Source: a virus | Direction: 5' to 3' (one strand) | Virus record (IMG/VR): IMGVR_UViG_3300042922_000850 | Coordinates: 1-64,000 of that record | Length of the DNA stretch: 64,000 nt | Shown here: in pieces, positions 48,621 through 55,751 of the stretch | How the letters are laid out: each line of letters begins with the position of its first letter | How positions within the stretch are numbered: position 1 is the first letter of the stretch | Made by a program: the position numbers and the translations under genes | Notes under the pieces: generated by a model | Database searches by the model: none | What the model saw: only the letters and a program-made list of their open reading frames with translations | What the model was told of the DNA's origin: nothing

Positions 48621-49145
48621 TTATGCGATATCAACAACATCGCCCAATTTATAGCTACGTGATACTTTGCTGCGCAGAGTACTATTCGGGTTTAAAACAT
48701 CACCTTTCACTCTCACTGGTTGAATTTTCTTAGGGGATAAGCCTGCCACAGTATTTGTTACACCTTTGTCTGCAATGCCTATGTTCGTAACCGGCCCGGT
48801 TATTTGTTTTGGTGGTTGTGCAATAACAGAGGATACATCTTTTGTAACATTCGATGCGGGCACCTTCGCTTTAATTGAGCTCCCTATCATGCCACCAACT
48901 AAAGCACCTTGCAACGCACCACTAAGTTTATTACTTTTTAAATTGCCATTTTCATCAGTTGACGGTTTTGCGGTTAAAGCCCCTCCGACTGCACCTAACC
49001 CAGCTCCGGTCAAAGCCTTTTTTGTGACTGACTTCGCAGCAAAACTTTTAACTGCATTCGCAAGAACAGCTCCGGCGACAGCAATCTTTTCTGTTTCCTC
49101 TGCCATTTTATAAATACAATCTTCGTAATACGCTATTTTATCCAT
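48621..49145 (-). CDS. Tagged glycine-zipper protein
   Basis: N-terminal MDKIAYYEDCIYKMA tag; GAGLGAVGG, GALQGALVGG. Confidence 0.7.
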   Translation of the reverse strand: MDKIAYYEDCIYKMAEETEKIAVAGAVLANAVKSFAAKSVTKKALTGAGLGAVGGALTAKPSTDENGNLKSNKLSGALQGALVGGMIGSSIKAKVPASNVTKDVSSVIAQPPKQITGPVTNIGIADKGVTNTVAGLSPKKIQPVRVKGDVLNPNSTLRSKVSRSYKLGDVVDIA

Positions 49146-49224
49146 ATAAATCTCCTTTCCTATAAACCTATGCTATAACCATTATACTAGATGATTCTTT
49201 AAACATAAAGGATAATCTCGGACA

Positions 49225-53920: not shown

Positions 53921-55751
53921 TTTTACCCTCCCGGCTTTTCTTTAATAAATCAAAGAGCAATTGATTTTGTTTGTCTTTGTGTTGAGCAACTTCATAAATA
54001 AATTCATCTGGCGTCCGGTATTGTGATTTAAAAATACCGAGTGTTTTTGGCATTGTAGCCATGTAGCGATTTACATTTACAGACCGGTCTTTAGGCTCCC
54101 TGTGGCTTAACCCACCACTACGAATACCTCGTGCCTCCATTTGTTTCATCTTCTCTGGATTAAAATGAGGGTCAAGAACACCTTCCCATGTGGTATCGTT
54201 TAAAGAAATACCTTCTCCGCCGGCGCCGCTAATCAGCATGACCTTCTTTGCCCTGTTGTTAAAATCAACAACATCCTTTTGGCGGCTCTCTTCAGTTACA
54301 CCTTTGTTACCTTTCCCAATAAACTTTCCATACTCAATCCCACGGTCTTTTAAACCCGCTTCAAGCGTATCTGTGCCGCCGTTAATTAAATGACTGAAAA
54401 GAAGTGCCTGACCGTCTGGAGTATTCTCTAAATGAGCCTCTAGGTCGTCTAAGAGTTTCTTGGTCTTAGGGGTAATCTTTGCGCTTTCTTCCAAAGAAAT
54501 ACCAGGATGAACTGAACCAACGCTGTTCATCAATTTTCTTTCCTCAATCATTTGATTATATGCTTTTGCAATTTCCTCATTTTTAAAGGTTTCCAGACGT
54601 TTTGCAACAATCATCTGCTTTATCTTGGGATTGTCAGAAAGCATATCTTTGTATATTTTAGCCTGCTTCTTACTAATTGGTACCTTTATGATATTGGTTT
54701 TCTTTTCAGGCATATTTGCGACATCTTTGATATCATCATTATCTAAATAATCAATATACTTGGATAATTTACTTGCCAATTCCTTCTTATAATTAAATCC
54801 AACGACAGGAATTCTCTTTTCATTTGTTCCTTGGTATTGCCTATCAGTACTTCGCTTCAGGTACCGTTTGGAAAACTCATCTTTGCTTTCTCCGAGATTA
54901 TGATTGCCATTTGATGCAACATCGACAAGAGGCAATACATCAGCAATTTCATTAGACACTACTGAACCGGTTAAGCCGATATAGTTTTTGTACAGTTTTC
55001 GGCTAGATTTCAATGTTTCCGTAGTAAGAGTATCTTCGTTTTTACCACGATGGCTCTCATCCGTTATGACTGTATCTGCTCCGCTTTCTTTTAAATATCG
55101 TTCAGGATCGCTACGAAACATTTCATAAGAAATAACATTATAATCAGAATTTGGGTCGACGTTGTGATGCGTTCCTTTTTTTATTTCGGTTTTGTTCCCG
55201 ATTACATTTACTGTGCTATCAGTAAATTTACTAACCCCTTGTTCTGCAAAGTTATTTCTAAGAGAAGCGGGGACAATTATAAGCGCTTTGTTTGCCTTCC
55301 CCTCTGCCTTTAGTTTCTCGAACCTAGCAATACCGGTAAGCGTTTTTCCACTACCAACGCCGTGCGCGTAGATTACACTGTCTCCTGGGCGATTAACAGA
55401 CTTTTCTTGATGCGGATATAATTTTACATCCGATTTCAGTGCAGCTTCTTTATAAATCATATCTTCATACATTGCTATCTTATCCATCTGAATACTCCAT
55501 TTCGGTTCATAGATTTGTTTGGTGGATTTAACACTGCGAAGGTTCTTTATTTTAAACCTACGGATGCCACCTTTTTCCGGATCGTATCCCCAGAAATCGC
55601 TACCATCTATTTTATAAGGTTCTACGTTCCGAAAAGAGATGTTGCCTTTTTTATCACAGTACTTTATCTGCACCATGTTCATATTATTGCCACCGAGTTT
55701 AAGTTTCTCTATGTGTTGTAAATCACGTTTTCCGAATTCTTTTTCCGGCAA
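53913..55751 (-). CDS. WYL domain plus tagged SNF2-family helicase
   Basis: WYL (YCDKKG..SFR.VEPY...IRRFK), MDKIAMYEDMIYKEA tag, HGVGSGKT, DESH, LTGS, GGEGISL, QMEARGIR. Confidence 0.85.
   Translation of the reverse strand: MPEKEFGKRDLQHIEKLKLGGNNMNMVQIKYCDKKGNISFRNVEPYKIDGSDFWGYDPEKGGIRRFKIKNLRSVKSTKQIYEPKWSIQMDKIAMYEDMIYKEAALKSDVKLYPHQEKSVNRPGDSVIYAHGVGSGKTLTGIARFEKLKAEGKANKALIIVPASLRNNFAEQGVSKFTDSTVNVIGNKTEIKKGTHHNVDPNSDYNVISYEMFRSDPERYLKESGADTVITDESHRGKNEDTLTTETLKSSRKLYKNYIGLTGSVVSNEIADVLPLVDVASNGNHNLGESKDEFSKRYLKRSTDRQYQGTNEKRIPVVGFNYKKELASKLSKYIDYLDNDDIKDVANMPEKKTNIIKVPISKKQAKIYKDMLSDNPKIKQMIVAKRLETFKNEEIAKAYNQMIEERKLMNSVGSVHPGISLEESAKITPKTKKLLDDLEAHLENTPDGQALLFSHLINGGTDTLEAGLKDRGIEYGKFIGKGNKGVTEESRQKDVVDFNNRAKKVMLISGAGGEGISLNDTTWEGVLDPHFNPEKMKQMEARGIRSGGLSHREPKDRSVNVNRYMATMPKTLGIFKSQYRTPDEFIYEVAQHKDKQNQLLFDLLKKSREGKNG

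Follow-up and report, generated by a model that had tools for sequence, protein, structure and literature searches.

A recurrent peptide ending in K-x-A as a candidate protease-clipped leader and linker of head cargo in an uncultured contractile-tailed phage

Why should a phage place one and the same short peptide in front of proteins that otherwise appear unrelated? This question is raised by positions 48,621 to 55,751 of the first 64 kb (64,000 nucleotides, hereafter the window) of IMG/VR virus record IMGVR_UViG_3300042922_000850, the genome of which is a single contig of 166,758 bp with ~37% G+C. In a preliminary description of this region, six copies of a ~15-residue peptide, DK(I/V)AxYE(D/E)xIYKxA, were noticed on unrelated enzymes and interpreted as a portable capsid-targeting tag, analogous to that of the internal proteins of phage T4. 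The reading we favour, and consider probable though well short of assured, is that the peptide serves as a leader and linker clipped by the head protease and marks cargo that is held inside the head and probably ejected from it.

The peptide and its core site

All six copies were indeed found, on the minus strand. Three of them form protein N-termini: copy 1 (49101..49145 (-)) starts an open reading frame (ORF) of 174 amino acids (aa), copy 2 (51214..51258 (-)) an ORF of 287 aa, and copy 3 (53876..53920 (-)) stands at residue 1 of a polyprotein of 882 aa. The other three are internal. Copy 4 (53039..53083 (-), ~residue 280) and copy 5 (52040..52084 (-), ~residue 613) lie within the same 882-aa ORF, the former between a HAD-like module and the module following it, the latter between ParB-N-like and C-terminal ADP-ribosyltransferase (ART)-like modules. 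Copy 6 (55443..55487 (-)) occupies residues 89-103 of a 612-aa ORF, between an 88-residue N-terminal domain and an SNF2 helicase; since this ORF starts with TTG at 55751, with a good ribosome-binding site, copy 6 is internal and not N-terminal. The idea of an N-terminal address thus fits half of the copies in the window, while the three internal ones would be cleavable polyprotein linkers.

A profile built from the copies was compared with the six-frame translation of the whole genome, and eight copies were recognised. Seven of them constituted the training set of the profile; the eighth (~88,809), which was outside this set, was matched with an E-value of 1.5e-4, and the next-best match in the genome had an E-value of ~0.9. 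The seventh copy, at 95,547, forms the start of a paralogue, 321 aa long, of the 287-aa protein (genome positions 94585-95547 (-)), and the eighth an ORF of ~306 aa with a GTG start codon (genome positions 87895-88809 (-)). Synonymous codon differences are present among the copies, with for example four different Ala codons in use, which indicates selection on the peptide and not a DNA repeat or recent DNA duplication. As for the modules that carry the peptide, no mutual BLASTP match was detected except for one paralogue pair.

The peptide turned out to be composite. It consists of two hydrophobic-x-K-x-A sites placed exactly 10 residues apart, (M/I/L)-D-K-(I/V)-A and I-Y-K-x-A, with the conserved Y-E-(D/E) between them. 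In two internal copies, the Met position is occupied by an Ile or a Leu codon; the retention of a hydrophobic residue at this position follows from the double-site composition of the tag. Judging from the sequence comparisons, the conserved core is the five-residue hydrophobic-x-K-x-A, and the 15-residue peptide appears to be the version of the leader used by this particular lineage. The tag of ~15 residues is therefore real as a peptide, although the unit that would be functionally conserved is shorter than was first supposed. In a structure model of the 287-aa protein, residues 3-15 of the tag form an amphipathic helix with low predicted local distance difference test (pLDDT) values, detached from the cargo fold and followed by a disordered stretch.

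The five-residue site is distributed unevenly among the proteins of the phage. With expected numbers obtained by per-protein shuffling, head and cargo proteins contained 82 sites where 23.8 were expected (3.4-fold, z 12), a figure that is somewhat inflated, as this set was partly picked after the sites had been seen; the contiguous head genes alone displayed the same trend. The remaining proteins encoded by the minus strand, including those of the tail, contained 32 sites (27.9 expected, z 0.8), and those of the plus strand 45 (37.2 expected, z 1.3). The site is followed by Ser in 22% of cases, against a background of 7%.

A second linker, (K-x-A or N-A)-S-E-E-L-D-x-L-x-K-x-A, was also observed, twice in an ORF of 516 aa (window 36634-38184 (-)) and twice in an ORF of 1180 aa (genome positions 80955-84494 (-)) that contains 14 hydrophobic-x-K-x-A sites. 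Three of its four copies have two bracketing sites. This linker was not found in the five relatives that were fetched from IMG/VR as genomes or genome fragments.

The head protease and the head proteins

The phage is of the contractile-tailed type, and its sheath, major capsid protein, portal and large terminase were identified by PHROG matches. A candidate for the enzyme acting on the K-x-A sites is encoded by an ORF of 822 aa (10475..12943 (-)), in which a predicted prohead protease domain (12299..12865 (-), residues ~27-215) is followed by ~600 residues punctuated by K-x-A sites, 11 sites in all. The N-terminal domain matches a PHROG family of head maturation proteases (E 1e-9) and shares 35% identity (E 7e-40) with gp19 of phage G, annotated as head maturation protease (PMC12484599). 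An AlphaFold model of the domain, built on 28 homologues, reached pLDDT values of 80-94 in the core. When it was searched with Foldseek, T4 gp21 (5jbl) accounted for the top three matches (E 1e-3, probability 1.0, template modelling (TM) score 0.50-0.54 by target), and herpesvirus proteases came next with E ~0.1. Among the 28 homologues, His84 and Ser135 are invariant, and so is K24-x-A26 immediately in front of the domain; K222-x-A224, immediately behind it, is nearly invariant. No Pfam family was matched by residues 1-240 even at E 10, nor was the Peptidase S77 profile (PF03420), and a comparison of the domain with PDB sequences gave no match. From its modelled fold, the weak profile match and the homology to phage G gp19, we identify the domain as a putative gp21-type prohead protease. 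A complex prediction, run without controls, that paired the protease domain with the N-terminal 40 residues of the 287-aa family scored 0.01 and speaks neither for nor against an interaction.

The proteins encoded next to the protease carry the same site. An acidic scaffold-like protein of 214 aa (9803..10447 (-)) contains seven K-x-A motifs, with 2.0 expected, and its N-terminus resembles the middle of the tag: an aromatic-Y-E-D-I-I stretch is followed ~10 residues later by K-T-A-S. This N-terminus may represent an ancestral form of the leader, or it may use the same receptor. The same N-terminal pattern was observed in at least four of six relatives (G002, G004, G005 and G006). Another scaffold-like protein, of 355 aa (8715..9782 (-)), contains five sites, one of them in a tag-like context. 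Finally, the N-terminal 36 residues of the major capsid protein (8141..8248 (-)) include two K-x-A sites, at residues 10-12 and 34-36. The second of these is kept in all seven genomes compared, and the first has Ser in place of Ala in one of them.

Cargo modules and their exchange among relatives

The nature of the tagged proteins was described at the outset as unrelated enzymes, and for two of them this is well founded. The 612-aa ORF (53913..55751 (-)) contains, behind its small N-terminal domain and the tag, an SNF2 helicase (PF00176, E 3e-23), and a HAD-type hydrolase constitutes the second module of the 882-aa polyprotein (phrog_1238, E 1.7e-18; its homologues are annotated as polynucleotide kinase or phosphatase-like). 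The remaining modules are less clear: the ParB-N-like module of the polyprotein is a lead and its ART-like C-terminal module a weak one, and the others are of unknown type or of glycine-zipper character. In full, the polyprotein (51272..53920 (-)) comprises five modules, set apart by three tags and two simple K-x-A sites, in the order hydrophobic Gly-rich segment, HAD-type hydrolase, unknown module, ParB-N-like and ART-like. In the 174-aa ORF (48621..49145 (-)), the tag precedes a glycine-zipper-like hydrophobic segment with Pfam matches below the curated cut-off. Glycine-zipper hydrophobic segments are present in several tagged or site-rich proteins, including an ORF of 264 aa which adjoins the tagged genes (47796..48590 (-)) and has seven hydrophobic-x-K-x-A sites and a Gly-zipper tail; its product is a candidate for a head-internal protein cut into pieces. 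The small N-terminal domain of the SNF2 protein had been given a WYL identity from visual impression, which was dropped as Pfam did not support it at E 1.

The 287-aa ORF (50395..51258 (-)), whose paralogue was mentioned above, belongs to a family that is kept across the clade, and its orthologues in relatives also carry a leader. The family was modelled with confidence (pLDDT 88), and no Foldseek match to its fold was found. All rows obtained with VIA-align were weak (Z <=5.2) and consisted mostly of zincin-like peptidases including ArdC. Residues R-H-E, E, H and E-S are invariant in the family, and its motif reads H-E-x-x-E, not H-E-x-x-H; possibly the family represents a divergent metallohydrolase among the cargo.

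More than 250 homologues of the protease domain were detected in metagenomes, on contigs of up to 170 kb, some of which were labelled as Clostridia, Anaerovoracaceae or Paraclostridium metagenome-assembled genomes. A strict DNA pattern of the tag gave no match in IMG/VR, where the relatives have K, not E, after the conserved Tyr; a relaxed pattern retrieved six contigs with a dozen more tags from JGI metagenomes. The tags are uniform within each genome and differ between genomes. Close variants with K after the conserved Tyr occur 13 times in G004 and five times in G005, a nine-residue form without the first site occurs eight times in G003, and a third, unrelated-looking leader occurs nine times in G001. 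In the latter, a distant relative, no copy of the 15-residue peptide was found; the leader is M-S-(Q/N)-L-L-M-E-K-(I/V)-A, 9-10 residues long, and stands on nine modules (L003:8430-11576), two of them within one ORF of 251 aa. Its cargo is nevertheless of the same kinds, namely the 287-aa family, the SNF2 helicase and glycine-zipper proteins. The only element that this leader has in common with the 15-residue tag is the terminal hydrophobic-x-K-x-A, and every form of the tag ends in K-x-A. About two thirds of the 43 tags from five genomes are N-terminal, and the rest are situated at junctions.

Shuffling of tag and cargo among relatives, for which a scan had been suggested in the preliminary description, was indeed observed. 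The module that closes the 882-aa protein exists in G003 as a tagged gene of its own, and in G004 it opens a polyprotein. Similarly, the small N-terminal domain of the SNF2 protein forms a separate tagged gene in G003, and in a JGI metagenome contig the ParB-like module directly follows an N-terminal tag. The SNF2 helicase itself offered the largest sample. Of 120 orthologues, 115 have K-x-A at one and the same position ahead of the helicase core, and P5 is hydrophobic in 112, which indicates that the conserved unit is the site at the module boundary. What stands upstream is variable: 75 of the orthologues with the site have a leader of 5-21 residues, with length peaks at 8, 11 and 15, and in another 35 the helicase is preceded by a fused domain of variable type, PARP, DNA ligase and KTSC families included.

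The tagged genes lie on the same strand as the block from terminase to portal and adjoin it. The two distant tagged genes, those with the seventh and eighth copies, form minus-strand islands among plus-strand genes, and a similar extended -10-like promoter, T-G-T-G-A-T-A-T-A-A-T-T-A, was observed for both. Upstream of tagged and head genes, no distinguishing shared motif was found, and the promoters seen there were ordinary extended -10-like ones. The middle of the tagged gene block holds an opposite-strand gene for a sigma-70-family factor (window 49491-50150 (+)), and just past it are AbrB/SpoVT-like and SpoIIID-like regulators (56286-56528 (+) and 56555-56842 (+)), recognised by eye only; together, these genes suggest a spore-forming Firmicutes host. 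For the clade, spore-forming Clostridia or Peptostreptococcales are the probable hosts. Comparison of window positions 48-56 kb with 50,697 phage records by blastn gave no match, and the large terminase is only 31% identical to terminases of Bacillus phages; the phage is therefore without close cultured relatives. The portal gene is followed directly, on its downstream side, by an ORF of 2301 aa (window 25094-31999 (-)), a fusion of beta and beta' subunits of multisubunit RNA polymerase with Rpb2 and Rpb1 Pfam domains in order, which is a candidate virion RNA polymerase. Its orthologue of 2316 aa adjoins a tagged gene in metagenome contig L001.

The favoured reading, its alternatives and known systems

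According to the reading that we favour, each cargo module would be synthesised behind a short amphipathic helix whose last residues are hydrophobic-x-K-x-A and which in this phage contains two sites flanking Y-E-(D/E). During prohead assembly, the module would be taken into the scaffold or core. The protease with a gp21/assemblin fold, that is the N-terminal domain of the 822-aa protein, would then cut after Ala, a position suggested by analogy, so that N-terminal leaders are removed and the modules of polyproteins separated. Other substrates of this protease would be the capsid protein, which it would trim, and the scaffold-like proteins, which it would cut into pieces; it would also release itself from the extension that follows its domain. 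Once matured, the SNF2 helicase, the HAD hydrolase, the ParB-like and ART-like modules, among other enzymes, and the glycine-zipper proteins would remain inside the capsid and reach the host together with the DNA. In this process the leader itself may act as the address of cargo that would be encapsidated and later ejected. Three arguments speak for this role: i) within each genome, unrelated cargo proteins have the same leader over 9-15 residues, ii) a cleavable leader with nothing upstream of it would otherwise be pointless, and iii) a similar motif is present at the start of the acidic scaffold-like protein.

Several observations weigh against this interpretation. In some relatives the leaders comprise just 5-8 residues, which leaves little room for a separate address, so the 10 residues upstream of the terminal site may not be a targeting signal. 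K-x-A close to the starts of conserved domains, such as the SNF2 core and the N-terminus of the capsid protein, could be partly structural. The giant RNA polymerase, expected to be a virion protein, has no K-x-A site in its first 45 residues. The assignment of the protease draws on its predicted fold and on weak profile matches, with Pfam and PDB sequences silent and a Foldseek E-value of only ~1e-3. To these must be added the partly retrospective choice of proteins behind the enrichment figure.

The first of these points leads to the most serious alternative, which we nonetheless think unlikely: the head protease would cut at K-x-A, while the leader would carry no address at all. Cargo would enter the prohead by other surfaces or through fusion to a packaged partner, and N-terminal leaders would be remnants of module exchange. 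The short leaders, found on the same helicase, fit this scenario well, as do the internal copies, which clearly act at module junctions, and the scaffold and protease, which have just the five-residue site and not the 15-residue peptide. However, a leader without anything upstream has no obvious use as a linker, and yet the majority of tags are N-terminal; moreover, the uniformity of leaders within a genome points to one shared binding partner.

Such a partner might also be bound by a helix that the head protease does not remove, K-x-A being part of the binding surface. The helix could dock to a common partner from phage or host, such as a portal, scaffold, membrane or chaperone, or it could keep toxic enzymes inactive in the producing cell. 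Its amphipathic character and modelled detachment from the cargo, the possible toxicity of some cargo (the ART-like and ParB-like leads) and the uniformity within a genome, which would fit co-evolution with a receptor, are compatible with this. We consider it improbable, though, because scaffold-like proteins are strongly enriched in the same site and the protease domain has it on both sides, as is typical of processing sites (T4; SPN3US, PMC10052503), and it persists at the junctions of fused domains. A signal unrelated to the virion, for example for timed degradation, localisation or internal translation starts expressing modules separately, seems more improbable still. Several internal copies do keep Met at position 1, a possible ribosome-binding site precedes the copy at 55487, and the promoter-like sequences upstream of tagged genes are of ordinary extended -10 types. 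On the other hand, the Ile and Leu codons that replace Met in two internal copies fit a hydrophobic P5 and not a start codon, the site is common to capsid, scaffold and protease proteins, and the tagged genes sit together with packaging and head genes. Chance similarity or a nucleotide-level repeat, for which nothing speaks beyond the shortness of the motif, is practically negligible given the clean gap between the eight copies, matched at E ~1e-4 or better, and the next-best match, the synonymous differences and the leader kept on orthologues in many metagenomes.

Beyond the protease-clipped leader and linker in this single genome, one may speculate about a load-and-release code common to the whole clade, that is to widespread uncultured phages of roughly 150-170 kb infecting Clostridia-like hosts. 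Any module behind a short helix with hydrophobic-x-K-x-A at its end would enter the prohead by capture and be released there by a gp21-type protease cutting after alanine, and modules would be freely swapped, fused and split. Co-evolution of the helix with a receptor particular to each lineage would account for the uniform tag in each genome, and the tag alone could then load foreign proteins into the capsids of phages that infect Gram-positive anaerobes. We regard this wider scheme as conceivable, with the odds somewhat against it. If the favoured reading is correct, the tag provides a listing, from sequence only, of capsid cargo and so of the first proteins reaching the host, for a large and unstudied clade of phages. 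The list would comprise a helicase, a phosphatase-like enzyme, ParB-like and ADP-ribosyltransferase-like modules and membrane-active glycine-zipper proteins. A further consequence would be that gp21-type head proteases were re-tuned at P1 from Glu to Ala, as in herpesviruses, and that polyvalent effector proteins can be processed by the head protease and not by peptidase domains of their own. A load-and-release tag of 5-15 residues would then be of practical value where phages of Gram-positive anaerobes are to deliver proteins.

Among cultured phages, the closest homologue of the protease domain is gp19 of Bacillus (Lysinibacillus) phage G. In this protein of 300 aa, which is without the 600-residue extension, K-x-A flanks the catalytic domain at the same two places, and eight K-x-A motifs were observed with 2.5 expected (L051:8956-9858). 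Several K-x-A sites are also present in gp21 and the portal of phage G, and none in the N-terminus of its capsid protein.

In phage T4, the internal proteins IPI-III and Alt share a short N-terminal peptide that ends in a cleavage motif and is removed by the prohead protease gp21, and the cargo is delivered together with the DNA. The protease cleaves itself free and processes many head proteins at a short P3-x-P1 motif. The capsid-targeting sequence on T4 internal proteins was reportedly described by Mullaney and Black in 1996 (cited in PMC10052503), and the principle has been known since then. The likeness is considerable: here, too, a short N-terminal peptide on unrelated proteins ends in a candidate site of a gp21-fold protease, and the site is also present in capsid- and core-type proteins. 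The analogy drawn in the preliminary description thus gains support from the predicted fold of the protease, from the end site common to the capsid, scaffold-like and protease proteins and from module shuffling, whereas the extent of the core and the role as a linker had to be revised. There are further differences. T4 gp21 cuts after (L/I)-x-E and the cut here would fall after K-x-A; in addition, the tag described here is a 15-residue double site, it would also serve as a polyprotein linker, its sequence varies between sister lineages, and it is known from sequence alone.

Assemblin, the maturational protease of herpesviruses, cuts after Ala with Ser at P1'. Both the fold class and Ala at P1 with frequent Ser at P1' would be in common with the system described here; the differences are that Lys occupies P3 here, that sequence similarity is absent and that the match at the level of fold is weak (E ~0.1).

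Giant phages related to phiKZ also bear comparison. Many of their head proteins, including ejection and inner-body proteins, have N-terminal propeptides, some with several cleavage motifs, their protease cleaves itself, and a virion RNA polymerase is located in the head (PMC10052503, PMC5694885). Protease gp245 of SPN3US cuts after A-X-E with a similar preference for Ser at P1' (PMC10052503). Propeptides of head proteins, multiple motifs, self-cleavage of the protease, Ser at P1' and a virion RNA polymerase would be features of both systems. However, cleavage by the phiKZ-like proteases is after Glu, and their unrelated cargo proteins do not share one conserved leader, whereas here the leader is uniform and P1 would be Ala.

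As for polyvalent proteins, their processing was predicted to depend on built-in zincin-like metallopeptidase domains (Iyer et al. 2017, PMC5512222). They resemble the cargo described here in combining disparate enzymatic domains in one polypeptide, in their location near packaging genes, in the SNF2, ParB-like, ART-like and phosphoesterase themes and in their predicted injection. The 882-aa ORF, with its HAD-type hydrolase and ParB-N-like and ART-like leads, conforms to this description, and a SNF2 helicase gene adjoins it. It contains no zincin-like metallopeptidase domain, though the neighbouring 287-aa family gave the weak zincin-like fold rows mentioned above. Unlike in polyvalent proteins, the modules are joined by a repeated site that matches the head protease and frequently occur as tagged genes of their own. 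Taken together, the load-and-trim principle of T4 was already known, and what would be new is its probable alanine-cutting and modular form, with use inside polyproteins as well.

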